Shown one piece after another: positions 19,886-42,601 of a stretch of 64,000 nucleotides of DNA. The DNA is taken from contig JAHFIQ010000004.1 of the NCBI GenBank assembly GCA_023246355.1, positions 2,697 to 66,696 of the forward strand, given 5' to 3'. The notes under the pieces are model-generated. The model saw only the letters and a list, made by a program, of their open reading frames with translations. It was not told where the DNA came from and made no database searches. This DNA comes from Candidatus Uhrbacteria bacterium. GTDB lineage: Bacteria; Patescibacteriota; Patescibacteriia; UBA9934; GWF2-40-263. The position numbers were made by a program, and so were the translations under genes. Within the stretch, counting starts at the first letter, position 1. Each line of letters starts with the position of its first letter.

Positions 19886-21847
19886 ATGTCCCATTCAGAA
19901 AAATATCTTGAACGTCATCATCCACGAACCCATACAGCTCGAATTATTTTGGTCGTCACTGTGACAATCGTGGTGCTTTGGGTGGTTGCCGTCATGGTGA
20001 GTGCCACACAGGTCTTTGCTCACATGCTGGATGCCAGAGACGCCCTCATCCAAGCAAAAGAAGAAGCCACAGCGTTTTCTTTTACCTCAGCCTCTTCATC
20101 GCTTGAGAGAGCAGAGGAGGCGTTTGCTGCCTCAGAGCGTTTTCTTCCGGTGCTCTCATCTGTTTCCTGGGTCCCGGTTGTGGGCCACACCATGGCCTCT
20201 GTTTCCGATGTGGTGAGATCGGGTCACGATTTGGTCGAGGCTCTTCAGCCTTTTTTTGATCTTGGTGAAGACGTGGTTCAGCTCTCTGGTCTTTCCGATG
20301 CCTATCTCGCGCAGATGAACGAAGGACTTGTCCCAACCGTGACGTTTGGAGATTTATCCACGCAGACCAAGCGGGCCATGCTCACGCGTTTGAGTGCCTC
20401 CGCCGAGGATTTGGATTTGCTGTTCGCACGATTGGATTTGGTTTCTCAAGAGCTGACGATTCTCGCACAAGAAAGTCCGATCGGTCCTGTGCTCACCCTC
20501 ATGGACCCATTACGTGTTCAAGTGAATGAACTGACAGCTGAGTTAGATTTTTTAAGGTCTCTCGTCCGCCTCTTACCGACGTTTGCAGGTTTGGAAGATG
20601 AAGCCACATCGCTTCTGCTCTTTTTGAATAACAATGAATTGCGTCCAGGGGGTGGCTTCATGGGAACCTACGGCGTGCTCAAGACCTCAGGAGGCGATAT
20701 CACGGAGCTTGAGACCACGGACGTCTATGCCCTGGACGATGCAGCTTCCGACACGGTGACACGGACAGCGCCCTCTCCCTTGCAGAGATACAACGAAACC
20801 ACAAAATGGTTTTTTCGCGATAGCAATTGGTCGCCAGATTTCGCGGTGTCTTCCATGACCGCCTCTGCAATGTTCTTGGAAGAAGGGGGCGTTCCTGTTG
20901 AAAACGTGATTGGGTTTACGCCAACCTTTGCAGCGGACCTGCTCGCCATCACAGGACCCATCACGGTCGGAGGACAAACATTTACACCTGAGAACGTTGC
21001 TGATGCTCTTGAGTATCAGGTCGAGTATGGGTATGCAGAGTCGGGGAAACCTGTTGCGCAACGAAAAGAAATCTTGGCTGATCTCGTGAACGAGATGAAA
21101 GCACGACTGTATGCGCTTCCATCCGCGTCTTGGCAGAAGGTCTTTGATGTGACCCAAAAGGCTCTCGATGAGAAGCAATTGCTGCTATTTAGTTCTGTAG
21201 GGGAGGTGGAAAATGTCATCACCCGATTAGGCTGGGGTGGAAGTGTGGATTCCACAACGGTCGATGCGCTCATGATCGTGGATGCCAATCTCGCGAGCTT
21301 AAAATCCGATCCTGCGGTGAAGCGTGAGGTGACCTACACCCTGGAAAAAGATTCATCAGATCAATGGATCGGCAGGGTTTCGATTCACTACATCCACACA
21401 GGCGATTTTGATTGGAAGACGACCAGGTATCGAACCTACACGCGAGTGTATCTGCCCGTTGGGACAGAGCTTATTGATGTGGAGGGGTCTTGGCTCAATG
21501 ACAAAACACAAAACCCCACTGGGGCAAAAGGACCGGTGGATGTGGAACAAGAGCTTGGACTCACATCGTTTGGCACGTTTACGTCCGTGGAGCCTGGAGA
21601 AGAAAATACGTTGACGTTTACCGTGGCGCTCAGTCCCCAGGTGATTGAGACGATTCACAATGGCGACTATGCACTCTCCGTTCTCAAGCAAGCAGGTGCA
21701 CAAAATAACGCATTGACGCTCGACTTGAATTTTGATAAGAATGTCACGCACGCGACACCATCAGAGGACGAAGGGGAGTGGGGCGACGCCGCCTATCGCT
21801 TGAACACTATTTTAGATCAGGATTTGCAGATAGGGATTAGGTTGTAG
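19886..21847 (+). CDS. DUF4012 domain protein
   Basis: NNNELRPGGGF, RDSNWSPDF, KQAG motifs. Confidence 0.88.
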   Translation: MSHSEKYLERHHPRTHTARIILVVTVTIVVLWVVAVMVSATQVFAHMLDARDALIQAKEEATAFSFTSASSSLERAEEAFAASERFLPVLSSVSWVPVVGHTMASVSDVVRSGHDLVEALQPFFDLGEDVVQLSGLSDAYLAQMNEGLVPTVTFGDLSTQTKRAMLTRLSASAEDLDLLFARLDLVSQELTILAQESPIGPVLTLMDPLRVQVNELTAELDFLRSLVRLLPTFAGLEDEATSLLLFLNNNELRPGGGFMGTYGVLKTSGGDITELETTDVYALDDAASDTVTRTAPSPLQRYNETTKWFFRDSNWSPDFAVSSMTASAMFLEEGGVPVENVIGFTPTFAADLLAITGPITVGGQTFTPENVADALEYQVEYGYAESGKPVAQRKEILADLVNEMKARLYALPSASWQKVFDVTQKALDEKQLLLFSSVGEVENVITRLGWGGSVDSTTVDALMIVDANLASLKSDPAVKREVTYTLEKDSSDQWIGRVSIHYIHTGDFDWKTTRYRTYTRVYLPVGTELIDVEGSWLNDKTQNPTGAKGPVDVEQELGLTSFGTFTSVEPGEENTLTFTVALSPQVIETIHNGDYALSVLKQAGAQNNALTLDLNFDKNVTHATPSEDEGEWGDAAYRLNTILDQDLQIGIRL

Positions 21848-21856
21848 GTTCGTTGT

Positions 21857-22024
21857 TGGCCAGCCAGGGATCTCCTCAAAAACACGGGGTCACCCACCCG
21901 TGTTTTATCCCACCGTTGGTTCTCGGTGCCCCTCGTAACTCGCCTGGCAAGAATGACAGAAGCAGACCGATGGACGCCTCAGCCAGGCTCCGTTACGGTT
22001 TTTTCGGAGATCCCTGGCTGGCCA
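21857..22024 (+). repeat. structured repeat family B, copy 2 (mreB 5' region)
   Basis: perfect 19-bp IR tggccagccagggatctcc/ggagatccctggctggcca. Confidence 0.85.
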
Positions 22025-22027
22025 CCT

Positions 22028-23032
22028 ATGTTTCAAAGAAAAATTGGGATTGATCTTGGGACCACCACCGTCCTCGTTTATGTTCCTAAACGAGGGATTA
22101 TTATTCATGAGCCATCTGTGGTGGCTGTGTCGGTTACGGATAAAAAAGTGCTGGCGGTCGGTAAGGAAGCAAAGGACATGTTGGGTCGCACACCAGACAC
22201 GATCGTTGCTAGACGTCCACTCAAGGATGGCGTGATCGCTGACTATCGAACGACTGAGGCCATGCTGCGCTACTTCATCAACAAGGCGTTGGGTGGTGTG
22301 AGACTTTTTCGACCTGAGGTGATGGTGGCGGTTCCCGGTGGCATCACGTCCACGGAGCGCCGCGCGGTCATCGATGCCACACTCGCGGCCGGTGCCAAAG
22401 CTGCCTACATCATCAAGGAGCCGATCGTGGCTGCCATCGGAGCCAACATTCCGATCGGCTCGCCTTCAGGCCATATGATTATCGACATCGGTGGGGGCAC
22501 GAGCGAGATGGCGGTCATTTCCTTGGGAGGCATTGTGGCTTCGGAATCTGTGCGCATCGGCGGGGTGAAGTTTGACTTGGCAATTTCTGAGTACATTCGG
22601 CGCAAGTACGGGCTTGCCATCGGTGAGCGAACAAGTGAAGACATTAAAATCCAAATTGGGGCGGCCATGTACTTACCCGACAAACTCGCCATGGAAGTGA
22701 AAGGCCGCGATATGGTCACAGGCCTGCCGAAAATTATCGAAGTGACATCAGATGACGTCACGGTTGCCATTCAAAACGAACTGGAGGGCATCATCAATAC
22801 GGTCAAAGAAGTTTTACACAAAACACCCCCAGAGCTTTCAGCCGACGTCATGGACAAAGGCATTGTGCTCTCCGGTGGCTCCTCGCAGCTGAGAAATCTT
22901 GATACACTGATTGCTGAGGCAACCGGTGTTCCAACGTTCGTGGCAGAAGATCCTCAACAATGCGTGGCCAAGGGAACAGGCATTGCGCTTGAAAATTTGG
23001 AAGCGTACAAGAGATCAATTTTTACATCGTAG
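22028..23032 (+). CDS. mreB: rod shape-determining protein MreB
   Basis: IGIDLGT, EPSVVA, DIGGGT. Confidence 0.97.
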   Translation: MFQRKIGIDLGTTTVLVYVPKRGIIIHEPSVVAVSVTDKKVLAVGKEAKDMLGRTPDTIVARRPLKDGVIADYRTTEAMLRYFINKALGGVRLFRPEVMVAVPGGITSTERRAVIDATLAAGAKAAYIIKEPIVAAIGANIPIGSPSGHMIIDIGGGTSEMAVISLGGIVASESVRIGGVKFDLAISEYIRRKYGLAIGERTSEDIKIQIGAAMYLPDKLAMEVKGRDMVTGLPKIIEVTSDDVTVAIQNELEGIINTVKEVLHKTPPELSADVMDKGIVLSGGSSQLRNLDTLIAEATGVPTFVAEDPQQCVAKGTGIALENLEAYKRSIFTS

Positions 23033-23034
23033 TT

Positions 23035-24201
23035 ATGCCAGCCGACTTGAATCTCCTTGCAACACAAACAACCGGAGACATTGTCTACGGCATCGACGCG
23101 TCGTCTGCAAACAAACAAAAGCGCACCGGAGTCGAGAACTATGCGCGAGAGCTAATTCAAGCTCTGAAATTGCAACCGCTCAAAGAACAGGAGCGCGTTG
23201 TTTTATATACACCTACGAAGTTAGATGATGAACTTGGCGTGCTTCCAGCTGGTTGGACCTCGCAGATTCTCCACTGGCCGCTCAAGCGTGGCTGGATGTC
23301 CTGCCGCGTGAGTTGGGAGATGCTGCGTCATCGGCCCAGCGTCTTGTTTGTTCCAGGTCAGGGGCTTCCAAGATTTGCAGGAGTGACTCTTACCACCATT
23401 CACGACCTTGCCTTTGCCCGCCGTCCTGATCTCTACGATCCATCCGTGCGTCGACGGCTCAAGCGCGTGACCAAACATGCGATCAAAAAAGCGACGCGGA
23501 TCTTGGTTCCTAGCCAAGCAACCAAACAAGATCTCGTTGATCTCTATCACGTGACATCTGATCGGATCGTTGTTACACCTGAAGCGGTGAACACCAAAGT
23601 GTTTCATCCTTACTCACCAGAGGACGCTCGAGTTACGCTACAACAGCATCGTCTTGGTGCAAATTTTTTTCTCACCGTCGGCAGGCTCGAAAAGAAAAAG
23701 AATCTCACGACCCTGATTCGAGCCTTTGAGTTGTTCAAGAGCCGTCGGGGAATGGGCGATCCGTTTGAGCTGTTGCTCGTGGGAGAGCCAGGCTTCGGCT
23801 ACACAGAAATTAAAAAGTATATCGATCTTTCTCCTTACAAAAATCAAATTCATGAACTCGGCTATCTTCCCGATGAGGAAGTCGCGCCACTCATGAGTGC
23901 GGCAACCGCGTATGTGTTTCCGTCTTGGTATGAAGGCTTTGGGATTCCGAATCTGGAAGCCATGCTTGCTGGGACAACACTTATCACCTCGGACATCGAA
24001 GCGCATCGTGAAGTCGTTGGCGACGCAGGCTTGCTTGTTGCCCCGGGTGAACCAGAGGCTTGGGCACAAGCTCTCGCGCGAGTCGTCAAAGAGGGAAGTT
24101 TGCGCGCTGAGCTTGTTGAGCGTGGCAAACAAAGAGTCATGGGTTTTTCTTGGCAGAAGACAGCAGCAATGACACTGGACAGCTTGAGATCTTTGGTGTA
24201 G
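23035..24201 (+). CDS. glycosyltransferase family 4
   Basis: TGVENY, TIHDL, YEGFGIPNLEAM. Confidence 0.93.
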   Translation: MPADLNLLATQTTGDIVYGIDASSANKQKRTGVENYARELIQALKLQPLKEQERVVLYTPTKLDDELGVLPAGWTSQILHWPLKRGWMSCRVSWEMLRHRPSVLFVPGQGLPRFAGVTLTTIHDLAFARRPDLYDPSVRRRLKRVTKHAIKKATRILVPSQATKQDLVDLYHVTSDRIVVTPEAVNTKVFHPYSPEDARVTLQQHRLGANFFLTVGRLEKKKNLTTLIRAFELFKSRRGMGDPFELLLVGEPGFGYTEIKKYIDLSPYKNQIHELGYLPDEEVAPLMSAATAYVFPSWYEGFGIPNLEAMLAGTTLITSDIEAHREVVGDAGLLVAPGEPEAWAQALARVVKEGSLRAELVERGKQRVMGFSWQKTAAMTLDSLRSLV

Positions 24202-24212
24202 TGTCAGGGATT

Positions 24213-24989
24213 ATGGACGAACTCAAAAAAGAACTGCAACACTTGGGGCTTTCTGATAAGGAAGCAAAGGTGTACTTGGCTGCCCTTGAACTTGGCCCAT
24301 CGCCTGTCCAGGACATCTCCCATAAAGCCCATGTGAACCGGGCGACGACCTATGTGATGATTGAGTCATTGGCTTCGCGCGGGCTCATGTCAACCTTTCA
24401 AAAAGGCAAGAAACGTTTTTACGTCTCCGAGAGTCCTGATCGACTGCTCTCGATCATTCAAATCCAGCAAAAAGAATTGGCAGAAAAAGAATCAGAGTTG
24501 CAAGGCGTGATGCCGCTGCTCACCAGCCTCTACAATGCCGAAGGTGCCAAGCCGCAGATTCGATACTTGGAAGGCATGGAAGGCGTGAAAACCGTTCGGG
24601 CGATTTTTGAAAAGCTGCCTGGTGACTTTATCGAGATCGCGCCACTGGACGATGTCCATGAAACAAAAGAGTTAATGGGAGAAGGGCGCGAAGAACATCA
24701 TGCGGTGCTACGACAGAAAGGCGCCAAGTATCGCGTGCTCGCCATCACCAAAAATACCGACCCGATGTGTTTGCCTGACATGGGAGAAGGGGAATGGCGC
24801 ATGCTGCCACCGGAAAAGTTTCCCATTCATGGGAGCATCGTGGTGCGTCGAGATTATGTGTTCCTGTTCTCATATCGTTCGTCGATTTTGTCCGTTGTGA
24901 TTCGTTCGCAGGAAATTGCCGATGCGATCCGTGCCCTGTTTGCCCTGGCGTGGGATGGGGCAAAGGGTTATCCCTCAAAGGGTTGTTAA
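24213..24989 (+). CDS. TrmB-family transcriptional regulator
   Basis: LGLSDKEAKVYLAALELG HTH; YLEGMEG. Confidence 0.9.
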   Translation: MDELKKELQHLGLSDKEAKVYLAALELGPSPVQDISHKAHVNRATTYVMIESLASRGLMSTFQKGKKRFYVSESPDRLLSIIQIQQKELAEKESELQGVMPLLTSLYNAEGAKPQIRYLEGMEGVKTVRAIFEKLPGDFIEIAPLDDVHETKELMGEGREEHHAVLRQKGAKYRVLAITKNTDPMCLPDMGEGEWRMLPPEKFPIHGSIVVRRDYVFLFSYRSSILSVVIRSQEIADAIRALFALAWDGAKGYPSKGC

Positions 24990-25020
24990 AAAGAAGACAG
25001 ACCTGCGTGGTCTGTTTTTC
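24988..25020. terminator. bidirectional terminator
   Basis: aaaaagaagacagacc-tgcgt-ggtctgtttttc. Confidence 0.75.
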
Positions 25021-25291
25021 GTTTCGTCTGTTGGTCGATGGAGTGGGGATGTGGAGAGAACGTGAGAGTGAGAGTTGTCTCTTGCTAGCTGCCGCCTGGG
25101 CAGATGTAGCAAGGGCAGAACCGCCTGGGATCTTCGTCGACAGCGTGTCGACGAGTCCTGGCCAACCGTGTTGCACGGAAGGCACAAGCGGAATGCAACT
25201 CATTCATCACCATCCTCTCTATCTCCATCACATCCTCCTCACCTTTGTCTGTCCGTTGGACTTATTGTTCGCCGCTCATGTTGAGAAACGA
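24988..25291 (-). ncRNA. putative stand-alone structured RNA (or mRNA of a 47-aa ORF at 25085-25228)
   Basis: promoter TTGACG-N17-TAGTTT (25326-25298), several hairpins, terminator. Confidence 0.45.
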
Positions 25292-25428
25292 CAAGACAAA
25301 CTAACAAGAAGGCTGGTTCTCGTCAAGAGATTCTGTTGGCGAACGTTGGCAAACAAAAAACTCCGACGACTGTCGAAGTTTTTTGCTACTCCTTGGGAGA
25401 GAGTTGGGTAATGAAACCCTCGAAGGGT

Positions 25429-25507
25429 AGTAGCAAGTAGTTAGTAGCAAGTAGCATGTATGTTCACTCCGAAAATACTTGCTACGTGCTACGTGATACT
25501 TGCTACT
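25429..25507. repeat. inverted heptamer hairpin element, empty copy
   Basis: nearly identical to the 31771-31851 copy. Confidence 0.9.
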
Positions 25508-25603
25508 GCTCTCAGAGCGTCGCCCGACACGTCCTTTCCCCAGCAATGGTTTGAGAGCGTGTCAGGCAGAGAGCGCTAGTCACGTCGTTCGCGAACGACG
25601 TGA

Positions 25604-25732
25604 CTAGATGATGCCGCGCAGGTGCGGGCCTTCCTCGAAGAGGAGCTTGATCGCGTAGACGGCGGAGAAGGCCATCATCGCATAGAGGACATGCTCGAGC
25701 TCGCACTTCGCGATCAGTTCAATGAAATACAT
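25604..25732 (-). CDS. 42-aa small hydrophobic protein (not in ORF track)
   Basis: AGGAGGT RBS; MYFIELIAKCELEHVLYAMMAFSAVYAIKLLFEEGPHLRGII; GC3-biased codons. Confidence 0.65.
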   Translation of the reverse strand: MYFIELIAKCELEHVLYAMMAFSAVYAIKLLFEEGPHLRGII

Positions 25733-25744
25733 GGGGACCTCCTA

Positions 25745-25812
25745 GTCCTAGCAGGACACGACCGGGGTCATGTTCTCTTAGGACTCGGCGATCGATTTCG
25801 TGTCGATCGCCG
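25745..25812 (-). repeat. two-hairpin intergenic motif, copy 1
   Basis: homologous to 27262-27337 and 27813-27880, with compensatory changes. Confidence 0.85.
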
Positions 25813-25956
25813 TCCGTTGGTTTCTCACCGTGGAGGTTCTGCTCCCTCTGGGCTCACCGTCCGGTGGCCGAAGTTCTCCATTGCTGGATCGCTTCGACCA
25901 CCGGCATCGCAGGTGACGCGCCTGGTTTGAGTCCAGGAACTTGCGGCCGCGGGGAC

Positions 25957-27216
25957 CTACTTCTTCTTGCCCGCCGACTGCATGTCGTTGCGGATCTGGC
26001 GATCCTTCTCGGCGCGCGCTGCCATCTTTGCCAGCTTCCACGCCGGGGCGCCATTGCCGCTCCCGCCGGTCGCACCGCCGTTGCCGACGACGTCTCCGAA
26101 TCGCGGACGCAGGTTCCGGCTGGCCGCCTGGTACTTCAGCTCCTCGTCCATCATCGTCCGCATGGTCTCCTTGAGGGAGTACCCGCGGCCGAAGCGACGG
26201 ATGCAACGCTCGCCGAACGCGTGCCGCCACAGGTCTTTCGACCCGATGCGGCTTCCGTTCTGACGCTCGCGCATCGCACCGATTGGCGGCACCTGGGCCA
26301 CCGACTCGAGCACGAGGTTGCCGCATCCGCAGACGCACCGGAACGCGAGTCCCGACGCGGTGCTGATTCGACCGAAGGGATCGCTCCCCTCGGGCTTCAC
26401 GCTGGGGATCACCAGGATCAGCGGCGCGGACGCAGGGGAGGCCGACTTGCGGGCGGGGAGGACGAGGCCGGGCTTCACGGTCGCCTTGGGCTTGCGGCTC
26501 TCGACGATCTCGCTCACGCGGGCCTGGAGGGCACCCGCGCTGCGGAACAGGAGATCGACACCGAAGCCCGAGAGCTCCGACGGCGTTTCTCCATTCCACC
26601 CGATCACCTTCACGACCTCGCGGTCGTCGGTGAGACGGGCGAGCTCGTCGGCGGCCTTGCACGCGGCGGTGACCGCGGAGAGGTAGTCGGCCTCCATGGC
26701 GCGGGGGTGATCGCTCCACCTCTCCATGATCAGGTCGGTGCGGCTGAAGCCGAACTGCCGGACCAGGACGTGGTCGTCGATCTCATTCACCGCGTCCGCG
26801 AGGCGCGAGAGCCTGTCCGTGTAGACCGCCTCGCCGACGGTGTCGTCGTCGAACTCGTACTCGCTTTCCTCGCTGTCGGCCTCGATCTCCTCGTCGGACG
26901 CCTCTTCCCAGCTCTCGTACGAGCCGGCGAAGTTGTCCCACTCGGTGGCCGTCAGGTAGACCTCGCGGGACTGGACGGACGCGCTCGCGCGCATGCCGCC
27001 GTTCTGCCGACGGTTCAGCTCGCGCTGCCACGCCACGTCCTGCAGAGCCTGGTCCTCGTCGACCATGTCGAGGTTCTCGAGCGCGATGTCCGAGTAGTCG
27101 GGCGAGTTCGCGTCGCCTTCGCTCGTGACGTGGGAAGTGATCCCACGGCGATTGAACTTGATGCCGAGTTCGCGCACGCCTTCGGAGGCGAGGATGGGGC
27201 TGGGGGATCGGGACAT
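25957..27216 (-). CDS. hypothetical protein (acidic N-half, CxCGC motif, basic C-tail)
   Basis: 419 aa, AGGAG RBS, strong GC3 bias. Confidence 0.8.
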   Translation of the reverse strand: MSRSPSPILASEGVRELGIKFNRRGITSHVTSEGDANSPDYSDIALENLDMVDEDQALQDVAWQRELNRRQNGGMRASASVQSREVYLTATEWDNFAGSYESWEEASDEEIEADSEESEYEFDDDTVGEAVYTDRLSRLADAVNEIDDHVLVRQFGFSRTDLIMERWSDHPRAMEADYLSAVTAACKAADELARLTDDREVVKVIGWNGETPSELSGFGVDLLFRSAGALQARVSEIVESRKPKATVKPGLVLPARKSASPASAPLILVIPSVKPEGSDPFGRISTASGLAFRCVCGCGNLVLESVAQVPPIGAMRERQNGSRIGSKDLWRHAFGERCIRRFGRGYSLKETMRTMMDEELKYQAASRNLRPRFGDVVGNGGATGGSGNGAPAWKLAKMAARAEKDRQIRNDMQSAGKKK

Positions 27217-27261
27217 GAGAATCTCCTGGTTCAGTGGGGGGGGGAAGTAACCTTGGGCAAA

Positions 27262-27337
27262 GCCCTAGCAGTTCACGATTTAAGATCATGGACTCTTAGG
27301 GCTGGGCGAGTCGACTCACGTACGAATCGATCGCCCA
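27262..27337 (-). repeat. two-hairpin intergenic motif, copy 2
   Basis: gccctagcag..cacga..tcatg..ctcttagggc plus ggcga..tcgcc hairpin. Confidence 0.8.
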
Positions 27338-27394
27338 CCACGTCGCTCGCGAGCGACGTGGCCGTCGTTCCCTTCGCCGTTGGCGTCTAGCCGT

Positions 27395-27601
27395 TCATCG
27401 AGCGGTCGCGGTCTGCAGGCGGCGGGCCTGCTCCATGCGGCGGACGAAGCGGGGAAGGATCACGGGGACGGCGGGGCGCGGCGGCGGGGTGGTGCCGGTG
27501 CAGAAGATCATGCCGGTCGTGAGAAAACGATCGGCGTCCTCGTCGGTGAAGAAGCGGTCGGTGGCGCGGGCCACCATGAGGATCGTGGGGGAAGGGGGCA
27601 T
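27395..27601 (-). CDS. 68-aa hypothetical protein
   Basis: GGGGAG RBS; MPPSPTILMVARATDRFFTDEDADRF... Confidence 0.6.
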   Translation of the reverse strand: MPPSPTILMVARATDRFFTDEDADRFLTTGMIFCTGTTPPPRPAVPVILPRFVRRMEQARRLQTATAR

Positions 27602-27812
27602 GGGAAGACTCCCCTGGTCGGTTGGTTCGGGTCCGACGCAGGAATTCGGAGAAGAATGGTCCAGTGACCTACCCGAAGGTTGGTGTAGACCTGGAACAAC
27701 GGGCATATGGATCAAGTAAGCGTAAGCCTAGTTGGGCCATTTGTTGTTCCTCCTCACGACCGCTTTTGGCGGCCAGAGGTTTCTCTCTCCTCCGAGTTCC
27801 TGTGTCAGATTT

Positions 27813-27880
27813 CCCTAGCAGGACACGATCATCGATCATGTTCTCTTAGGGTTCGGCGATCAATTTCGTGTTGATCGCCG
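27813..27880 (-). repeat. two-hairpin intergenic motif, copy 3
   Basis: ccctagcaggacacga..tcatgttctcttaggg plus cggcgatcaa/ttgatcgccg. Confidence 0.85.
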
Positions 27881-28012
27881 CCCGTGTGCACCTAGCGTTT
27901 TTTCGGAAGGAGCAGGTGCGCTCCTTCCAACCACCCTTTCGGTTTCCGTTGTTCGCATCCTGTCTGGGACGCGGTAACGGTGGGCTGTGGTGCCCGTGTT
28001 GCTCGCCTCGCG

Positions 28013-28657
28013 CTAGCCGTTGGTTCCGGTTCCTTCGCCCTCGTCCGCCTCGTCCTCATCGGACTCGGCGGGTTCGGGGGCGGCGGTTCCGGCGGCGATC
28101 GCGGCGGCCTCGGCGCGGCGGGCTTCCTCGAGGTCGGCCTTGAACTGCGCGTAGCCTTCCTCGCCGGCGATGAGCTCGAGGATCTGCAGCGAGGTGCGGA
28201 TGTGGAGGCCGTGCTTGCCGATGATCGCGCGCGCGACGGTCTTCTCGGTCTCCTGCGTCGGTGCGTTGAACACCGGCGCGAGGGTCTCGATCAGCACGTC
28301 ACGCTCGCCACGACCGAGCTTCACCGGGCGACCCTCGGGGGTCTTCTTGTCGAGCGCCACGCCTTCCTTGGCCGCCTTCATCTCCGGGATCCAGCTCTGG
28401 AAGTACCACTCGCGGCTGCCGGCTTCGAGCTCGACCTTGGCCATGGCCCACCCGATCTGCACGATCGCGAAGGCGGACTGGCGGGACGAGATCGCGAAGT
28501 CGAACAGCTTCTGTCCGTGGTCCTTGAGCGGCTCGTAGAGACCGACGATGAGTTGGACCGCGAGGTCCGCTTCGTCGCGGGACACCACGGGCGTGGTCTG
28601 GCGCGGAGCCTGGCGGGGGGCGACGGCACTGTTGCGGGTCGGGAGCGTGAGAGACAT
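28013..28657 (-). CDS. hypothetical protein
   Basis: 214 aa, AGGAG RBS, GC3 bias, acidic tail. Confidence 0.8.
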   Translation of the reverse strand: MSLTLPTRNSAVAPRQAPRQTTPVVSRDEADLAVQLIVGLYEPLKDHGQKLFDFAISSRQSAFAIVQIGWAMAKVELEAGSREWYFQSWIPEMKAAKEGVALDKKTPEGRPVKLGRGERDVLIETLAPVFNAPTQETEKTVARAIIGKHGLHIRTSLQILELIAGEEGYAQFKADLEEARRAEAAAIAAGTAAPEPAESDEDEADEGEGTGTNG

Positions 28658-29099
28658 TGGGACTCCTGTTCTTGCGGTTGCGGCCGTGTGGCCAGGGAAC
28701 TGAATCGCTCGACGGTCAGAAATGATCCCGTCAGCCTACTGGAGGCCAGCCGTCGCCCTTGCGGGCTATGGCTGGTAAATAGTGGTGCATTGACCGATCC
28801 GAGGATCTGGTGTGCACCGTGGAGATCGGGTGTGTGGGGTGAGTGAGCCAAGGCCCAGTCAATCCACTTGATCTCCTCCGCTCATCGCGGCCGAAGCGTT
28901 GATGAGACGGTTTTACTCTCTCCTCCATGAGGCTGATGGCATCAGAACAAAAACCGGTTGTTGAATACATCGTCCAGAGAGAGATGCGTACAACAACCGG
29001 CCTTTGTGAAGGTTACGATTGATGGCCATTTACTTGGCCTGAGTACTCTCTCCCCAGAAAGTGTTTCGTTGTAAGCTTTGTGTGATCTTGTATGGACGC

Positions 29100-29128
29100 A
29101 GTCTATCATATTTTGTCAACTTTGTCAA
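29100..29128 (-). promoter_or_regulatory. sigma70 promoter of the GC-rich unit
   Basis: TTGACA-N17-TAGACT with extended -10 TG. Confidence 0.75.
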
Positions 29129-29133
29129 GACTT

Positions 29134-29154
29134 GTTGGGAGCCAGGCTCCCAAC
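29134..29154. repeat. REP-like palindrome
   Basis: gttgggagcc-a-ggctcccaac. Confidence 0.65.
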
Positions 29155-29250
29155 TCTAAGCTAAAATTAGCTTAAAATAGCAATACACTCAGTGTTTACA
29201 ATACTGGACATCACAGGGCAATTTCAGCCTCGTGTTATACTAGTGCCTGT

Positions 29251-30150
29251 ATGGGACTTTTTTCTTCCCTCATCGGACACACAAAAGCAAAAGACGTTCT
29301 TTCAAGGATGATCGAACACAAAACCCTTCCACATGCCCTGCTTTTTGTCGGGCCAGATCACGTGGGAAAGACTCTGCTTGCCAAAACGCTGAGTCGTCAG
29401 GTTCTGGGGGTGCAGAATCTTGAGACTCAGCCTGACTATCTCGAGCTCAAACGTTTGGATGATGAAAAAACAGGCAAGCGCAAGTCCAATATCTCTGTGC
29501 GTCAGGTTCGAGAATTGGTGGGAAGGCTATCCATGACCTCGTTTACTGGAGGAGCCAAAGTGATTTTTGTAGAAGAGGCACATAGGCTCTCCATGGGCGG
29601 GGCGAACGCGCTTTTGAAAACATTGGAAGAACCAAAAGGCCAAACGCTTTTTGTCTTGCGAGCTCCGAGCGTTGAAGACGTTCCTGCGACTATTGCATCT
29701 CGTTGTCAGGTCATGCATTTCACGGTGGTCTCTGCATCTGCAATTGTTGATGGGCTTGTGCGAGCTGGATTCAGTCAAGCCGATGCACAAGAGGCGGCGC
29801 TTCACAGCGAAGGTCGGCCAGGACTCGCGCTGCGCTATCTCAAAGACAGTGAGTATCGAGCGCAGCGTGAAACCGATCGAGTGCAAGCAGAGACGTTTTT
29901 GGCAGCGAGTTTGCCAGAGCGTTTGCGCCTGGTGACAGAGCTCATTCCAAAAGCAGAAGTGAACAGTGCGAGTCGTTTGCAAAAAGTGATCACCGAATTG
30001 CAGATGGTCGCTCGTCGAGATCTTCTTGCCACCTCATCTACCTCCTCCACCTTATCCACCTTTCTCGAGCGTCTCTCAGAAGTCCGCCAAGCCGCACGTC
30101 ACAACATCAACCCTCATTTAGCTCTTGAGCACATTGCTCTTGCCACATAA
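29251..30150 (+). CDS. holB: DNA polymerase III delta' subunit
   Basis: HALLFVG..GKT, ANALLKTLEEP, TIASRCQ. Confidence 0.9.
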   Translation: MGLFSSLIGHTKAKDVLSRMIEHKTLPHALLFVGPDHVGKTLLAKTLSRQVLGVQNLETQPDYLELKRLDDEKTGKRKSNISVRQVRELVGRLSMTSFTGGAKVIFVEEAHRLSMGGANALLKTLEEPKGQTLFVLRAPSVEDVPATIASRCQVMHFTVVSASAIVDGLVRAGFSQADAQEAALHSEGRPGLALRYLKDSEYRAQRETDRVQAETFLAASLPERLRLVTELIPKAEVNSASRLQKVITELQMVARRDLLATSSTSSTLSTFLERLSEVRQAARHNINPHLALEHIALAT

Positions 30151-30151
30151 T

Positions 30152-31198
30152 ATGAAACGTTTTTCACTCATTGCTCTTTCCCTCATCTTGATCGGCGCTG
30201 GCTGCTCAAGTTCCTCATCTTCTGGTTCAGACGGCGGAATTTTTTCCTCCGCAAACGCTGGTCAGGACTGGACACAGACCGTGATCGTTCCCACCGCCTC
30301 AGGCATCGGCACACTCGCGACCACGGATGTGCTCAACATGGAAATGGATCCAGAGGACGATACGTTCATGTACATCGGCACGCGCCAAAACGGGGTGCTC
30401 TACTCGCAAGACTCGGGTATCTCGTGGATGCAACCTGAGAGTGATGCTCTTTCCGACGGACTGATTTATCACATCGAGGTGGACCCCACAGATGTCTGTA
30501 CCGTGTATGTTGCCAAGGGTTCTCGTTTGTATAGCACACGAGATTGTATGCGCTCGTTTGATTCAGAAACGTACGTGGATAACAGAAGTGGCGTGTCAGT
30601 TGTGCAAGTGGCTGTGGACTGGTTCAGCGCAAGTACGATTTGGATTGGTCTCTCAAACGGAGATGTACTCAAGAGCACAGACTCAGGTGACACGTGGCAG
30701 ACGGTTCTCAAAACAGGAGAGGAAATTTCCAACATCCTGATTCACACAACCGACTCAAGAAACGTTCTCGTTTCGACCTTTGGAAAAGGCTTGTACAAAA
30801 CAGAGGACGCGGGTGCTGATTGGGATGAAGTTGATGGCGGACTTTCTGATCTGAAAAAATCTGAAACCGTGTACAGCCTGATTCAAAGCGATGATTCATC
30901 TGTGGTAATCGCAGCCAATGGGTATGGACTTGTGCGCTCAACAGATTTTGGTTCGACATGGGAGGCGATTGAGCTGGTGACCTCCGCCGGTCAGGTAACG
31001 ATCCGTGCTGTGGGCATGGACGTCACGGATCCTGACACGCTTTACTATGCTGCCAACGCCACGTTCTATCATTCAGACGATGCAGGCTCCACCTGGGACA
31101 CAGAAAAACTTCCGTCCTCTCGCGTGCCACGAGCCATGCTGGTTGACCCTGATGAGCCGGCGGTGTTATATATCGGAGTCGCGAGTGCGACGGATTAG
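30152..31198 (+). CDS. BNR/Asp-box beta-propeller lipoprotein (YCF48-like)
   Basis: lipobox LIGAGC; repeated SxDxGxTW. Confidence 0.85.
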   Translation: MKRFSLIALSLILIGAGCSSSSSSGSDGGIFSSANAGQDWTQTVIVPTASGIGTLATTDVLNMEMDPEDDTFMYIGTRQNGVLYSQDSGISWMQPESDALSDGLIYHIEVDPTDVCTVYVAKGSRLYSTRDCMRSFDSETYVDNRSGVSVVQVAVDWFSASTIWIGLSNGDVLKSTDSGDTWQTVLKTGEEISNILIHTTDSRNVLVSTFGKGLYKTEDAGADWDEVDGGLSDLKKSETVYSLIQSDDSSVVIAANGYGLVRSTDFGSTWEAIELVTSAGQVTIRAVGMDVTDPDTLYYAANATFYHSDDAGSTWDTEKLPSSRVPRAMLVDPDEPAVLYIGVASATD

Positions 31199-31201
31199 TG
31201 T

Positions 31202-31756
31202 ATGCATGCACTTCTGATTCAAAAAAAACCATCGTTTGATAGCGCGCTTGAGCATCTCCAAAAAGAGTTGGGACAGTTGCGCACCGGACGTGCCACGCCA
31301 GCACTTGTGGAAAATATTTCGGTTTCTGCCTACGACGCATTCATGGAGATCAAGGGCTTGGCTTCCATTTCCACAGCCGATGCCAAAACGATTGTGATTG
31401 ATCCGTGGGACAAGAGCCTGCTCAAGAATATCGAAAAGGGCATTCGCGATGCCGGCGTTGGGCTTTCACCGGTCGTGGATAGTGATGTGATTCGCATCAT
31501 GATGCCGCAAATGACCGAGGACAACCGCAAGGCCATGGTCAAAAAGATGAAAGAGTTTTTAGAAGAGACACGCGTGTCGCTGCGCCAGGTTCGTGAAGAA
31601 ATTCGTGGAGAAGTCGTTGCCATGGAAAAAGACAAGGCGATCAGTGAAGATGAAAAGTTCAAGCTGTTTGATGAGGTTGATAAGCTCACCAAAGAATACG
31701 TGGATCGTGTGGAAGAAACGGGTGACAATAAAGAAAAAGAAATAATGACCGTTTAA
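31202..31756 (+). CDS. frr: ribosome recycling factor
   Basis: LRTGRATP, PWDK, ISED. Confidence 0.96.
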   Translation: MHALLIQKKPSFDSALEHLQKELGQLRTGRATPALVENISVSAYDAFMEIKGLASISTADAKTIVIDPWDKSLLKNIEKGIRDAGVGLSPVVDSDVIRIMMPQMTEDNRKAMVKKMKEFLEETRVSLRQVREEIRGEVVAMEKDKAISEDEKFKLFDEVDKLTKEYVDRVEETGDNKEKEIMTV

Positions 31757-31851
31757 GTAGCAAACTGTTTAAGTAGCAAGTAGTTAGTAGCAAGTAGCAT
31801 GTATATCTGCTCCGAAAATACTTGCTACATGCTACTTGATACTTGCTACTT
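31755..31851. repeat. inverted heptamer hairpin element, empty copy (frr-glyS)
   Basis: aagtagcaagtagttagtagcaagtagcatgtat..atacttgctacatgctacttgatacttgctactt. Confidence 0.9.
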
Positions 31852-31856
31852 CGCTT

Positions 31857-33188
31857 ATGAACACAAACGTCACCATGGAAAAACTCGTTGCCCTCGCGAA
31901 GTCGCGGGGGTTCGTGTTTCCGGGCTCGGATATTTATGGAGGATTGGCTAACTCTTGGGATTACGGACCTCTTGGGGTGGAGTTGAAAAAGAACATTGTC
32001 GATGCCTGGTGGAAGCGCTTTGTTAGTTCGCGGCGCGATATGGTTGGCATCGACGCGGCGTTGGTGATGAATCCGAAAGTTTGGGAGGCGTCGGGGCATG
32101 TCGCTACGTTCACCGATCCGCTCGTGGAATGCAAAACCTGTCATGAACGCTATCGTGCTGATCAAATTGATTTGAATGCGGCTTGCCAGAAATGCGGCAA
32201 CAAAGGCACGTTCACCGATCCAGCGGCGTTTAACATGATGTTGAAAACGTGGCTTGGTCCGAAGGAGGATGCAAGCGCGGTCGCTTATTTCCGTCCCGAA
32301 ACGGCTCAAGCGATGTTTGTGGATTTCCCCCAAGTTCTTCAAAGCTCGCGCAAACGCGTTCCGTTTGGTATTGCTCAAGTCGGCAAAGCCTTTCGCAACG
32401 AGATCACGCCAGGAAATTTTATTTTCCGTACACGCGAGTTCAACCTAATGGAATTTGAGTATTTTATTCACCCATCGGAGTGGGAAAAGTGGTTCGAATA
32501 CTGGCTAGAAGAGATGAAGGCTTGGCTGAGATTTCTCGGGGTCAAGGATGATGAATTGGTTTTCCACGAAATTGAAGACGGTGAACGCGCGCACTACTCC
32601 AAGCGCACCGTCGATATTGAATATTATTATCCGTTTGGTCTGAAGGAATTGTATGGTTTGGCTTACCGCACCGATTTTGATTTAAAACTGCACATGGAAT
32701 CCTCAGGGAAGGATTTGCGCTATACCGACCCTCAGACGAACGAGAAGTATCTCCCGCACGTCATTGAGCCGGCTTTCGGTGTGGATCGATCGGTTCTTGT
32801 GACGCTGCTTTCAGCCTACCACGAAGAAGAAGCCCCGACGTCAGAGGAAGGGGAAACAGATAAACGTGTGGTGCTGAAACTTCCCAAAGCGCTTGCGCCG
32901 TTTAAGATCGCGGTGTTGCCGCTTTCCAAAAAAGACGAACTCGCTGTGGTCGCAGGACCTCTCGCAGATCGTTTGCGCCAGAGGTGGGCGACCGATTACG
33001 ACGAAACCCAATCCATTGGCAAACGTTATCGACGTCAAGACGAAATCGGCACGCCGTACTGCGTCACGGTAGATTTCGACACGCTCACAGATCAGGCCGT
33101 CACCGTCCGCGATCGAGACACGATGAAACAGGATCGAGTGAAGATAGATGATTTGGAAGTTTATTTTTCAGAGCGCCTCGCAGGCTAA
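31857..33188 (+). CDS. glyS: glycine-tRNA ligase (alpha2 type)
   Basis: DYGPLG, RPETAQ, FRNEITP, IGKRYRRQDEIGTP. Confidence 0.96.
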   Translation: MNTNVTMEKLVALAKSRGFVFPGSDIYGGLANSWDYGPLGVELKKNIVDAWWKRFVSSRRDMVGIDAALVMNPKVWEASGHVATFTDPLVECKTCHERYRADQIDLNAACQKCGNKGTFTDPAAFNMMLKTWLGPKEDASAVAYFRPETAQAMFVDFPQVLQSSRKRVPFGIAQVGKAFRNEITPGNFIFRTREFNLMEFEYFIHPSEWEKWFEYWLEEMKAWLRFLGVKDDELVFHEIEDGERAHYSKRTVDIEYYYPFGLKELYGLAYRTDFDLKLHMESSGKDLRYTDPQTNEKYLPHVIEPAFGVDRSVLVTLLSAYHEEEAPTSEEGETDKRVVLKLPKALAPFKIAVLPLSKKDELAVVAGPLADRLRQRWATDYDETQSIGKRYRRQDEIGTPYCVTVDFDTLTDQAVTVRDRDTMKQDRVKIDDLEVYFSERLAG

Positions 33189-37508: not shown

Positions 37509-38048
37509 ATGACTCACTACGAGTTGCTCGCTGTCCCCATGGACGCGAGCACTGACGATATTCGACGCGGCTTTCGAGAGAAGGCTCAGGTTCTTCACCC
37601 GGATCGGTTTGCCAAGCTCGGCGAGTCGAAGGAGCAACAGACTGAACGGGCTCGCGTGTTTCAGCAACTGCGCGATGCCTACGAAACGCTCATAGATGAA
37701 CGTAAGCGTCGGGCCTATGACCGCCTGATTCAGGTTCCACAGGGTCTTGCTGATCTTGTGCGGCTTCCTGAAGGTCGGCGCGCCATGGCACGACTGCTTC
37801 CTCGAGCGACCAAGCAGGCTCGGGAAGGGGAAGATCGTCTCGTCCTCATCGAGGCTCCGCTATCTTTGCTCAGAACAGGAGGAGTGCTTGAGCTCACAGT
37901 GATTTCTTTACCCGGCTACGATCCACTGTTTGTGCCGCCGAACGCTCTTGACATGCCCTGGGCACATCTGAGCGAGCTGGGAAATCCGGGCGAAAACGAA
38001 GGAAATCCTGGAAACCTCTACCTCTTGCTGATTCCAAGCGCTTCTTGA
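37509..38048 (+). CDS. J-domain (DnaJ type III) protein
   Basis: HYELL, HPD, AYETL..RRAYD; GNLYL tail; promoter TTGACA-N17-CATACT. Confidence 0.88.
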   Translation: MTHYELLAVPMDASTDDIRRGFREKAQVLHPDRFAKLGESKEQQTERARVFQQLRDAYETLIDERKRRAYDRLIQVPQGLADLVRLPEGRRAMARLLPRATKQAREGEDRLVLIEAPLSLLRTGGVLELTVISLPGYDPLFVPPNALDMPWAHLSELGNPGENEGNPGNLYLLLIPSAS

Positions 38049-38139
38049 CCCTTTCGGGGGTCATTTTCTTTTGCCCGCTTTTCTTGACATTCTCAGTCGT
38101 TTTGATAGTCTGAGTCCTCCTCTTCCAGGAGTAGGAAAC

Positions 38140-38595
38140 ATGGCCCTGTTTTCACGCAGTGGCGCTCGAAGCGCCCTGTCTACATTCGTTCGTCAAAATG
38201 ATGAAGGCGGCAGCACGGACAGCCGTGCGACTCAGTCCGCTCGATTGCTTCAAGCAGGCTTCGCCCCGATCCTGTGGGACGATGAGCTTGGCGGATTCGT
38301 GAGCGACCCGGCGATCTTCGCCGCGGCCGTGAGTCACATCGCTACTGCCTCCATGGCTCCCGCAAAGCTCGAGGAACTCAAAGCAGTGAAGACCATCCAG
38401 GCGATGCGAGCACTCGCAAAGGACGTGGACGCCAGCATCGTGACGCCCGAGGATGGGGCACTCTCTGCCTTCCTGCGCGGCGTTGCGGCTCTGGGAACCG
38501 ACGGCCGTGTGTGGCTCTTGCTCGTCGCGGCTCATCTTGGCAGCTTGAAAGCAACTGCGCAGCTGCGCCCTCTCATCTACCCCAACCTCAAGTAG
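38140..38595 (+). CDS. hypothetical protein
   Basis: promoter TTGACA-N16-TAGTCT; AGGA RBS. Confidence 0.75.
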   Translation: MALFSRSGARSALSTFVRQNDEGGSTDSRATQSARLLQAGFAPILWDDELGGFVSDPAIFAAAVSHIATASMAPAKLEELKAVKTIQAMRALAKDVDASIVTPEDGALSAFLRGVAALGTDGRVWLLLVAAHLGSLKATAQLRPLIYPNLK

Positions 38596-38601
38596 GATGC
38601 C

Positions 38602-39372
38602 ATGCCCATCGATCCCAGTGACCTGAACGCACTTGCCGATGACAGGTTTCGACAAGGAGAAGGAGGCACAGCGCTCGCAAGGCGCGTGCAAGAAGACCCG
38701 GTCTCTGCTCTGCAGTTGATCGGCTCAACCTCGCTCGCCAGGGGGCAGAGCGCCAAAGCCTTGGACAACATCATCGGCGCGATCGGCGACGATGCGAAGG
38801 CCAAGGACTTGGTCGCGGAGCACGTGACCGCGGAAGTCCAAGCGGAAATCCTGGTGGCATGGGGGGACCGAGTGAGCTCGCTCGCTCAGATCGCCGACCC
38901 GGAAACGCTCATCCAGGCCATCTTCCGGATGAGCCATGAGGAAGGACATCTGGATCTGGCCGTGGCCTGCGCAACGGTTCGGGGGCTCGCGATGCAGATT
39001 CACGATCGTTCTGACTGGGACGAAGTGCTGGATCTGGAACTTTCCAGTGACTTCACCCTGCGGGATCTGCTCGTGATCGCGGTAGCTGCCGAGGTCGATC
39101 CTGTGGACTTGGATCCCAAGGACGCCGGTGATGATGACGAGGATGACGAGACGTCCAGTCAAGGAGCTCGACCGGCGGACGCCTGGGTGAATGTGGGACT
39201 CAATCCCGATGAGGCCGAAGAGCGACTGGAGGAGTTGGAACAGATGTCGCCAGACATCTGGCGCGAAGTGACGGATACGGCTCTGTTCTCTGCTCGTCTG
39301 GCTCTTTCCAAGAAGCGTGAAGAGCTCGGTCTGCCTGCGGATGCGACCCGCGGTTCGGCTCACGACGTGTAG
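38602..39372 (+). CDS. hypothetical acidic helical protein
   Basis: 256-aa ORF, 6 nt after the previous stop. Confidence 0.8.
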   Translation: MPIDPSDLNALADDRFRQGEGGTALARRVQEDPVSALQLIGSTSLARGQSAKALDNIIGAIGDDAKAKDLVAEHVTAEVQAEILVAWGDRVSSLAQIADPETLIQAIFRMSHEEGHLDLAVACATVRGLAMQIHDRSDWDEVLDLELSSDFTLRDLLVIAVAAEVDPVDLDPKDAGDDDEDDETSSQGARPADAWVNVGLNPDEAEERLEELEQMSPDIWREVTDTALFSARLALSKKREELGLPADATRGSAHDV

Positions 39373-39490
39373 CTCGCGATCGGCTTACCCACGCAGGGAG
39401 CCGATTTTCTTTCCCGTGACGGTCACGGGAGTTTTCTTCGCCGGTCATGATTCTCATGAACGTCGATTGAACCTTTCACTTGGGGATGCC

Positions 39491-41971: not shown

Positions 41972-42034
41972 AATGAAAATCCCCACCTGTTGGTGAGGAG
42001 TGGAGATCGACCGCGTGTCGATCTTTTCGTTTGG

Positions 42035-42601
42035 CTACTCGCTCTGGAGCGCCTTTTCGATCTCGGTCCAGTTGTGCGGATCCTGACCTTCGCCGCCCGA
42101 GACCCAGCTTGCGCGCACGCGACCATCCTGGATCAGGATCAGTGCGTTCTTGGTGCGGCTGCTGAGGTTCGGAGGGTTGATCCTCAGAAGTCGCGACAGC
42201 GTGGCGCTGGGGGAGAACACGGTGCAGCGGGTGGGCTCACGTGTCAGGCCATGCAGGCCCGTGAGGATTCCGCAGCTGTAGAGGACACTGCCGATGAAGT
42301 CGGTCGCGCCACCACCGACCATGACGACCGGTACGCCGAGCCGCTCGCCGTGGCGAAGTACTTGTCCGATTGCGCCGTAATCAGCGAGATCTTCCACACA
42401 CACGAGAAGGTAGGTGCCGTCGCCGGGAAGGAGTTCGCCCACATGGAGCGTTCCGCCGTTGACTGGGGTCACACCACCCACGGGCTTTCGATGGATCTGG
42501 AAGGTGGCGTCTTCTGGCCACTCGATGAGGCTGGTGCTGTGGCCCTTGGACGGGCCGGAGGGAGCAAGGGCGGGAGGAGGAAGAGCGGGCGAGAGAGACA
42601 T
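42035..42601 (-). CDS. hypothetical protein, possible degenerate peroxiredoxin fold
   Basis: C-terminus ALILIQDGRVRASWVS...WTEIEKAL resembles Prx/Tpx ends. Confidence 0.6.
   Translation of the reverse strand: MSLSPALPPPALAPSGPSKGHSTSLIEWPEDATFQIHRKPVGGVTPVNGGTLHVGELLPGDGTYLLVCVEDLADYGAIGQVLRHGERLGVPVVMVGGGATDFIGSVLYSCGILTGLHGLTREPTRCTVFSPSATLSRLLRINPPNLSSRTKNALILIQDGRVRASWVSGGEGQDPHNWTEIEKALQSE

Follow-up and report, generated by a model that had tools for sequence, protein, structure and literature searches.

Genes and transcription signals of the operon

The window, the whole 64,000-nucleotide stretch of Candidatus Uhrbacteria DNA that was analysed, carries on its minus strand an operon of four open reading frames, named here by their lengths in amino acids: ORF214 (28657-28013), ORF68 (27601-27395), ORF419 (27216-25957) and ORF42 (25732-25604), as the preliminary description had listed them. 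All features given below lie on the same strand. ORF214 is an orphan, predicted to be all-alpha, and ends in Asn-Gly-stop. ORF68 is a small orphan that has relatives at other loci within the clade; upstream starts in its frame, which would give 103-106 residues, fall inside the second copy of an RNA element, module B. ORF419 combines an acidic N-terminus, a helical domain, a CxCxC...C cluster that likely binds zinc, and a basic C-terminus. ORF42 is small and hydrophobic, has a strong Shine-Dalgarno (SD) sequence, and had no relative found.

None of the four ORFs had a significant match in Pfam, PHROGs or PADLOC, nor among PDB sequences, and none was found for 15 members of the ORF419 family searched against NCBIfam. 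Fold searches with ORF214 and with the whole chain of ORF419 returned no Foldseek match at E 0.001, the best Z score being 5.0, and all ESM Atlas neighbours scored below 0.9. A profile of ORF419 matched 38 unnamed representatives. One candidate, G090 (E 3.8e-4), was judged spurious.

A sigma70-type promoter, TTGACA-N17-TAGACT (10/12, with an extended -10), lies at 29128-29100, divergent from holB. The promoter by itself is at chance level (1 found, 1.1 expected); relatives have a promoter at the same place. The leader, previously put at about 440 nt, measures 436 nt, and its elements come in the order boxA-like motif, GGGAGAGAG, and a terminator whose apex is complementary to GGGAGAGAG, the 3' end of the operon being complementary as well. 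The boxA-like site (29062-29080) is a weak copy of a motif that the order's 16S rRNA leaders have in common; it ranks tenth in the window, with a score of 9.8 (region p 0.0014). Next come the strand GGGGAGAGAGU (29045-29055), which is complementary to the apex of the leader terminator as well as to the 3' end, and the terminator-like hairpin itself (28949-29001, -24.7 kcal/mol), which has a U-tract and carries UCUCUCUCU in its apex. At the far end, ACUCUCUCCC (25395-25404) is the complement of the 5' strand and precedes the final terminator-like hairpin, which had been placed at 25355-25386 and is read from the sequence, with its U-tract, at 25355-25384, though neither of two terminator-finding programs called it. 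The leader terminator is the stronger of the two hairpins.

TTACAA is the top shared 6-mer in six of eight 16S leaders and is present in 12 of 33 operon leaders; ACAACT is present in 14 of the 33. A matrix built from the 16S leaders, whose sites were chosen with the operon motif already known and the choice thus partly guided, finds the motif at p<0.05 in 28 of 37 operon leaders, from -3 to +9 nt relative to GGGAGAG; the other nine do not reach this level, and operon leaders preserve the 5' half of the site poorly. The motif, a candidate boxA of these bacteria, resembles the boxA consensus of B. subtilis and E. coli (PMC13753749). Operon and 16S units share one layout, namely promoter, motif, stem strand, cargo, stem strand and terminator. 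Pairing of the leader strand with the terminator beats shuffles in 21 of 36 rows, 15 being negative. The duplex between the 5' and 3' strands has -16.9 to -28.3 kcal/mol in all 11 near loci, and in a wider set it falls in the top decile in 12 of 18 loci, with six end tests negative; in four more loci, one of them in the window, no terminator was called. The end helix, with its 9-12 bp and a few more pairs, compares with about 22 bp in the 16S units, whose helix has -28 to -41 kcal/mol. NusB and RNase III are each encoded in five of five relatives' genomes; Rho, sought in five relatives' genomes, was found in none. Nus antitermination is best documented against Rho.

Folded RNA modules and repeats

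Spacers of 411, 178 and 224 nt separate the ORFs, in keeping with the hairpin-packed spacers of some 180-410 nt described before. On the transcript strand, folding z-scores are -7.4 for the leader, -8.7, -4.2 and -5.5 for the spacers and -10.9 for the tail, and -0.1, -2.2 and +0.6 for coding controls; the intergenic stretch 3' of the final terminator reaches -4.6 as well.

Module B, a multiway junction RNA, occurs twice, at 28732-28935 and 27633-27807. It has a closing stem of about 21-22 bp, an apical arm that is long and irregular, and a 3' central hairpin, and its covariation is marked (93.7% paired, 37 of 48 pairs compensatory). A G-U invariant in 37 of 37 points to the transcript strand. 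Module C (27888-27995) contains two predicted pseudoknots with compensatory changes, of which one is present in 11 of 11 copies, the window carrying the compensatory form, and the other, with at least 5 bp, in seven of 11. Module C' (25819-25940; eight copies) is an alternative upstream partner of hairpin D.

The two-hairpin motif reported once in each spacer is found at 27814-27850, 27264-27300 and 25747-25782 and, with up to 3 mismatches allowed, has no further copy in the window. The corresponding hairpin pairs, H1 and D, span 27813-27881, 27263-27336 and 25746-25812. Hairpin D is 98.2% paired with 6 of 13 pairs compensatory, and its outer pairs covary. Concerted evolution of D was not seen, similarity being 0.68 within loci versus 0.66 between loci. 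In 11 extended loci outside the ORF214/ORF419 clade, the D model gave clear copies only in L085. A divergent fourth hairpin pair, assigned by eye at 25417-25566, holds a dispersed heptamer-repeat hairpin in its loop. This fourth repeat, the leader terminator, the two copies of module B and the pseudoknots were absent from the preliminary description. A Met-Asn-Gly-stop micro-ORF (27387-27398) overlaps the ORF68 stop; 13 copies of this spacer micro-ORF were counted, against 0.16 expected.

A search of the locus RNAs against Rfam gave no significant match, the best ribozyme row reaching 17 bits against a cut-off of 34. RNase P RNA and tmRNA were rejected as the identity of the locus, both being encoded elsewhere in five of five genomes, and so was SRP RNA, since SRP RNA and the Ffh M-domain were both found in none of five. 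Titles and abstract openings in the literature held nothing on the locus or on Uhrbacteria noncoding RNA, and listings no on-topic 6S work in Patescibacteria, most subscription papers lying outside both searches. The cluster tables of one preprint (bioRxiv 10.64898/2026.10.21.760802) may hold these motifs.

Conservation, codon use and expression

Uhrbacteria-like genomes maintain a locus between holB and trmB, of which the window cassette is the local version; the cassette is not an artefact, nor was it inserted recently. What is conserved in the locus is the RNA, and the ORFs are variable. The model of module B, one junction RNA of about 175 nt, matches 92 of 150 genomes of the order; the 419-aa family is found in only 10 of 161, and the two core proteins in about 10 of 161, so that these proteins cannot be obligatory partners of the RNA. 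holB adjoins 23 of the 24 newly found loci checked, and each of the 11 extended loci sits between holB and trmB and has GC3-rich ORFs that are unrelated. ORF content and order vary from genome to genome, and in one locus (L071) duplicated spacers are nearly identical. Copies resembling module B also occur at second sites and outside the order set.

Comparison of synteny between the TrmB regulator and holB, as had been suggested, finds the locus at the same place in relatives, which share the gene order of the window. DNA contigs, possibly from the source sample, cover 21000-25458 and 25578-31801 at a depth of 13.8-14.3. The chimeric assembly envisaged earlier can be set aside because DNA contigs span the region and relatives keep its gene order. 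The earlier idea of a cassette-like transcript with repeated RNA sites, at which processing is putative, fits the covariation of the repeats as RNA and the genome-to-genome variation in which ORFs are present and in what order; that of a remnant of an unknown element finds no support, as the locus keeps the same site across the order and its RNA pairing is maintained. An RNA-protein complex locus, the remaining idea, would have to do without the two core proteins as obligatory partners.

Third positions in the operon are 89% G+C over 712 codons, versus 45-61% in 13 host genes, and SD sequences precede four of four operon ORFs versus three of 33 host genes, which bears out the strong SD and GC3 bias first noticed. 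The ORFs differ between lineages yet keep a GC3 near 0.9 and their SD sites, unlike host genes. GC3 is 0.73-0.99 in core ORFs versus 0.38-0.72 in flanking genes, and in the organism's own ribosomal protein genes, at 0.52-0.61, it lies below the core ORFs; it drops in the lowest-GC genomes (L025 and L026). The core ORFs have diverged in place to 16-60% identity and are still GC3-rich. Loss of the anti-SD was ruled out, as it is intact in 28 of 30 16S ends, and the cell's own ribosomes could therefore read the operon SD sites. Most likely, the proteins serve one life stage as a strongly expressed payload particular to the lineage.

Two runs of a single study, in which DNA carry-over is possible, gave five RNA-library contigs that fall on ORF214, ORF419 and the adjoining spacer. 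Both long ORFs carry such contigs, which give neither strand, transcript length nor processing ends. The RNA runs, which were selected with 24200-30100 and whose contigs can neither prove absence nor rank genes, gave no contig on 21000-25400, 29200-33000 or 1000-20999. Run X5 counts only as a small-share DNA holder.

A proposed model of the operon and its alternatives

An order of tiny symbiotic groundwater bacteria keeps new folded-RNA elements around exchangeable orphan genes at one fixed site, an address where lineage-specific genes gather. The elements amount to several new RNA motifs that covary strongly, and they come from a lineage in which RNA biology has hardly been described. The best explanation of the locus as a whole, at a confidence somewhat short of even, is an operon shared by the order and lying between holB and trmB, whose exchangeable orphan genes are flanked by conserved modules of folded RNA. 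Its transcription probably resembles that of ribosomal RNA, and the transcript is then probably cut into stabilised pieces, which, if true, would be an undescribed route of gene expression.

We tentatively propose, as something that has slightly less than an even chance of being right, a Nus-antiterminated, end-paired polycistron processed at its repeats by putative enzymatic steps. Transcription would pass the operon's own leader terminator, probably helped by the binding of NusB/S10, the complex that also acts on rRNA leaders. This read-through may be controlled through pairing between GGGAGAGAG and the apex of the terminator, and the two ends of the transcript are predicted to pair. The long RNA would probably be cut at the repeated H1 and D by RNase III or another nuclease, and the products would be separately stabilised, SD-translated mRNAs. 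Pseudoknots may block nucleases, and ribosomes may park on Met-Asn-Gly-stop ahead of structured blocks. D may resemble an RNase III consensus. RNase III typically needs two helix turns (PMC1540722); because D alone has about 16 bp with internal loops, and reaches that length only if stacked on H1, cleavage at D would need coaxial stacking of the two. The proposed model accounts for neither the size and conservation of module B nor the GC3 extreme. If it is right, orphan genes in streamlined symbionts would have an expression programme of their own, recognisable by codon use and SD sites, and such marks could point to host-interaction or dormancy factors.

Among known systems, rrn-type boxA/NusB-S10 units (rRNA operons, suhB, CRISPR arrays) are alike in the boxA-like motif of 16S leaders just 3' of the promoter, the presence of NusB, long poorly translated stretches, and complementary 5' and 3' strands before the terminator. 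The operon differs from them in that it carries protein genes led by SD sequences, has an intrinsic terminator some 60 nt past the site, has an end helix about half as long, and comes without a Rho found in the five relatives. Selective RNA processing and stabilization operons such as cip-cel (PMC4423207) likewise have one promoter and long intergenic stem-loops; unlike theirs, the spacers here are repeated covarying modules with pseudoknots, the genes are exchangeable orphans rather than subunits of a known complex, and processing is putative. A type III toxin-antitoxin was rejected: there was no family match of the ToxN/CptN/TenpN type, and the pseudoknots are single, not the tandem repeats that precede such toxins, and placed after ORFs.

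Module B invites two other readings. It is riboswitch-like in size, with a multiway junction, conserved unpaired bases and tandem copies always 5' of ORFs, and would be, in one unlikely account, an orphan riboswitch or protein-sensing switch, the locus a regulon of one signal and the other modules ordinary stability hairpins. Such a switch would suit the occurrence of B-like copies at second sites and beyond the order set, but the genes 3' of module B are unrelated between lineages, it lies 3' of the leader terminator, no mutually exclusive SD-sequestering fold was identified, and no Rfam match appears at E up to 10. That the RNA is far more widespread than any ORF suggests instead that it is itself the product, module B being excised as a stable noncoding RNA (a 6S/Ms1-like polymerase binder or an RNP scaffold) and the ORFs riding its strong promoter; we consider this decidedly unlikely. 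At about 175-200 nt, with a closing stem of about 22 bp, an irregular apical arm and a 3' central hairpin, module B recalls 6S (PMC8876501), and the 6S slot is empty in five of five genomes. Against this, the 6S model (RF00013) gives no match at E up to 10, the centre of module B is filled with covarying helices and hairpins rather than an open bubble, its copies are embedded and duplicated in mRNA, and the five RNA contigs fall on ORFs.

The phage T7 early region, to which PMC1540722 refers, carries RNase III sites, and the locus is like it in a strong host promoter, small orphan genes and repeated irregular intergenic hairpins. Integron attC arrays consist of ORF-plus-hairpin units in variable order behind one promoter, as does the locus. 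A domesticated phage early region or an integron-like cassette array, with D a DNA recombination site and the ORFs captured foreign genes, would fit the variable order and content, the near-identical duplicated spacers in L071, the foreign-looking codon use and, as a lead only, weak ESM Atlas neighbours that are viral (0.88-0.89). We nevertheless regard it as very improbable: no integrase or phage genes are seen near the locus, as had been noted, the ORFs have no significant PHROG match, and searches of viral contigs and phage genomes gave no relatives. The locus is chromosomal and vertically kept across the order, the outer pairs of D covary instead of staying fixed as invariant triplets, pseudoknots and G-U polarity indicate RNA, D copies are equally alike within and between loci, and the core ORFs have diverged in place while remaining GC3-rich. 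A loose viral pattern search gave about 4900 matches and was uninformative.

The extreme GC3 of the core ORFs, above even the organism's own ribosomal protein genes, and SD use within an SD-poor genome would also fit an end-paired, nuclease-proofed transcript exported into a host cell that is GC-rich and uses SD sequences, where it would be translated. This is the most improbable of the readings, given that the intact anti-SD would let the organism's own ribosomes read the sites, that GC3 is lower in the lowest-GC genomes and that no export machinery is linked to the locus. To extend the Nus-antiterminated polycistron to a second gene-expression channel is doubtful: an order-wide RNA chassis would borrow the rRNA transcription machinery, close its ends and package fast-evolving genes, in a codon and SD dialect of their own, into messages for storage or export, module B being a new polymerase- or ribosome-binding RNA and Met-Asn-Gly-stop a ribosome-parking signal.

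The insert in the loop of the fourth hairpin pair (25416-25520) consists of fixed 4-mers and variable 3-mers, then a reverse-complement copy, and so resembles, as far as their description goes, the period-7 Patescibacteriota arrays of cluster #156,623 (bioRxiv 10.64898/2026.10.21.760802); unlike these, as described, it is just inserted into a single loop, further copies lying at other places in the window.

The GC-rich unit between trmB and holB

The window is Patescibacteria-like in genome character. The genes trmB (24213-24989, plus strand) and holB (29251-30150, plus strand) flank a minus-strand unit some 3.7 kb long with 61-69% G+C, compared with about 51% for the window. The preliminary description placed its promoter, leader, four ORFs (ORF214, ORF68, ORF419 and ORF42, named by length in residues) and spacers correctly, as it did the three copies of the repeat and the final hairpin. 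The codon bias, Shine-Dalgarno (SD) sequences and folding reported there also hold: G+C at third codon positions (GC3) is 89%, versus 45-61% in 13 host genes that include ribosomal protein genes; an SD precedes every operon ORF (4/4), versus 3/33 host genes; and the hairpin-packed non-coding parts fold at z of -4 to -11, versus -2 to +1 for coding controls. Chimeric assembly, which would have undone that description, is not seen in DNA contigs or relatives.

Five contigs from two metatranscriptome runs of one study fall on the operon (25963-26170, 26113-26296, 26482-26707, 28001-28148 and 28200-28422); they carry no strand, level or end information and may include DNA. ORF214 is predicted to be all-alpha (pLDDT 84, pTM 0.74), and the predicted structure of ORF419 has two ordered parts (pLDDT 69, pTM 0.33); Cys294 and Cys296 of ORF419 are near-invariant. 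Searches returned no significant family or fold match for either protein, and their few named relatives are all Uhrbacteria or Patescibacteria hypotheticals.

Elsewhere in the window, 28/33 host start codons have T immediately 5' of ATG and lack an SD, while the three genes with an SD (8880, 37509 and 38602) have C before ATG and are orphan-like, which suggests two gene classes. GC3 is raised (to at most 0.74) in ORFs at 374-1159, 37509-41494, 41990-42700 and 51027-52985, some of them near tRNA genes. Past the operon terminator, a small conserved Cys-containing ORF ending in CPCYICPGGS (25085-25231, minus strand; 6087-6221 and 6371-6517 in the related loci L018 and L023) likely has its own promoter, and its intergenic stretch folds at z -4.6.

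RNA modules and their distribution

Module B, a junction RNA of about 175 nt with two copies in the window, consists of a closing stem of about 21 pairs, a long irregular hairpin, a hairpin with a 1x3 loop and often one more hairpin. Aligned with MAFFT, 11 copies show pairing in 94.3% of cells and covariation in 17/48 pairs. For 37 model-aligned matches, an alignment biased towards its model, the values are 93.7% and 37/48, with slid controls at most 48%. Because one G-U pair is invariant, the transcript strand is favoured. Module C has two predicted pseudoknots: pseudoknot 1 occurs in 11/11 copies, the window copy being altered on both sides, and pseudoknot 2 has at least 5 bp in 7/11 copies, with differing sequence; module C' stands in for C in 8 copies. 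The repeated motif of the preliminary description is a variable hairpin H1, a gap of 2-3 nt and hairpin D (98.2% paired, 6/13 pairs covarying in 21 hand-selected copies). A micro-ORF, start-Asn-Gly-stop, has 13 copies in 15 islands, none antisense and 0.16 in shuffles; its copies vary in start codon (three kinds) and stop codon (three kinds) and differ by synonymous changes, and it is absent from loci L071-L085. Its sequence is similar to that of the 3' strand of D, in which start-Asn-Cys-stop can be read 8 times, so it may act through RNA pairing.

A search with the repeat pattern found four genome loci and seven metagenome stretches, with no viral sequences among the matches. Two records are labelled Candidatus Uhrbacteria, one Patescibacteria and one (L001) Gammaproteobacteria; L001 is syntenic with the window and its proteins are 80-98% identical, so by sequence the last label is probably wrong. 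The ORF419 profile matched 11/161 genomes of the order, one of them spuriously. The ORF214 and ORF419 families occupy 13 islands each in their clade, in either order and with varying small ORFs around them. The module B covariance model matches 92/150 genomes of the order. Among 24 new loci examined from these matches, holB adjoins in 23, and holB and trmB flank all 11 extended loci, whose ORFs are unrelated and GC3-rich, many with an SD. With module B widespread at this site and the ORFs unrelated, genes are exchanged within an old RNA frame. GC3 stays at 0.73-0.99 in core ORFs, where flanking genes have 0.38-0.72. In a class-wide sample the model matches 7/151 genomes, four outside the order set and not next to holB; two have the same promoter-GGAGAGAG-terminator leader. 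Some genomes (those of L071 and L073) have a second unit of this type.

Leader and/or module B copies were also noted at second sites for L071, L072, L073 and L074, three of them sharing a contig with a 16S gene that lies 8-20 kb away. Spacers are duplicated in L071, where the boxA-like site is present a second time.

Leader, transcript ends and 16S units

Downstream of the promoter, the leader carries GGGAGAGAG and then a U-tailed hairpin with a UCUCUC-type tract at its apex. The duplex of GGGAGAGAG with the apex is better than shuffles in 21/36 rows, of which three are not true leaders and two more lack the terminator; 8/44 loci yielded no row. At the 3' end, ACUCUCUCC stands just ahead of the final terminator. 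A predicted duplex between the two ends is present in 11/11 near loci and falls in the top decile in 12/18 of a wider set, with four loci uncalled.

In eight of the order's 16S units the arrangement is promoter, GAUCnUU/CACAA-type motif, stem strand, rRNA, complementary strand, terminator. The motif resembles the boxA consensus quoted in PMC13753749 (B. subtilis AUGAUCUUUGAAA, E. coli UGCUCUUUAACA). According to PMC13753749, intrinsic termination is also hindered by the rrn complex; in PMC7862264, boxA precedes long non-coding arrays. It stands directly ahead of GGGAGAG in 28/37 operon leaders, and an unguided 6-mer count picks it out in 16S and operon leaders alike. Five relatives, used for gene-presence checks in place of the window's own genome, each encode NusB and RNase III (5/5); Rho was found in 0/5.

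Stem strand and terminator lie within about 200 nt 3' of the 16S genes in L116-L123, so 16S seems to be transcribed apart from 23S there. In the relatives' genomes G001, G003, G004, G028 and G053, SRP RNA, the Ffh M-domain, 6S and Rho were not found; G004 has two tmRNA matches above cut-off.

Proposed mechanism and alternatives

We tentatively read the unit as a pre-rRNA-like build loaded with genes, every enzymatic step of which we infer. The boxA-like site would be where Nus factors load, and the amount of transcription that gets past the terminator would depend on GGGAGAGAG pairing with its apex. The two ends of the transcript would anneal, and H1+D would serve as the cleavage site, perhaps for RNase III acting on stacked helices, which PMC1540722 allows. 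Pseudoknots would protect the resulting pieces, as stem-loops do in operons whose RNA is selectively processed and stabilized (SRPS operons; PMC4423207). The operon would work like SRPS operons and like boxA-led units. The short end helix and partial boxA are weak points, and the size of module B and the extreme GC3 are unaccounted for by this pre-rRNA-like model.

An orphan riboswitch is an unlikely alternative, and a non-coding RNA as the actual product somewhat less likely still. On the features compared, the locus could not be assigned to 6S RNA, known riboswitches, ribozymes, integrons, prophages or type III toxin-antitoxin systems. Features of T7, attC and type III systems serve as general background to these comparisons. 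We regard an array of captured cassettes as doubtful, and export of the RNA to a host as the most improbable reading, weakened by an anti-SD that is intact in 28/30 16S ends. The locus is real and conserved and, as far as searched, undescribed, the literature searched yielding no description of its type.

Two dispersed elements were also noted. Heptamer-repeat hairpins, with depth spikes, occur in the window at 25416-25520, about 31780-31860 and about 8018-8060, and fit what bioRxiv 10.64898/2026.10.21.760802 describes for cluster #156,623. A short, near-perfect REP-like palindrome lies at unrelated places, at 25576-25607 and 27339-27360 in the window and at 2278-2299 in L001.
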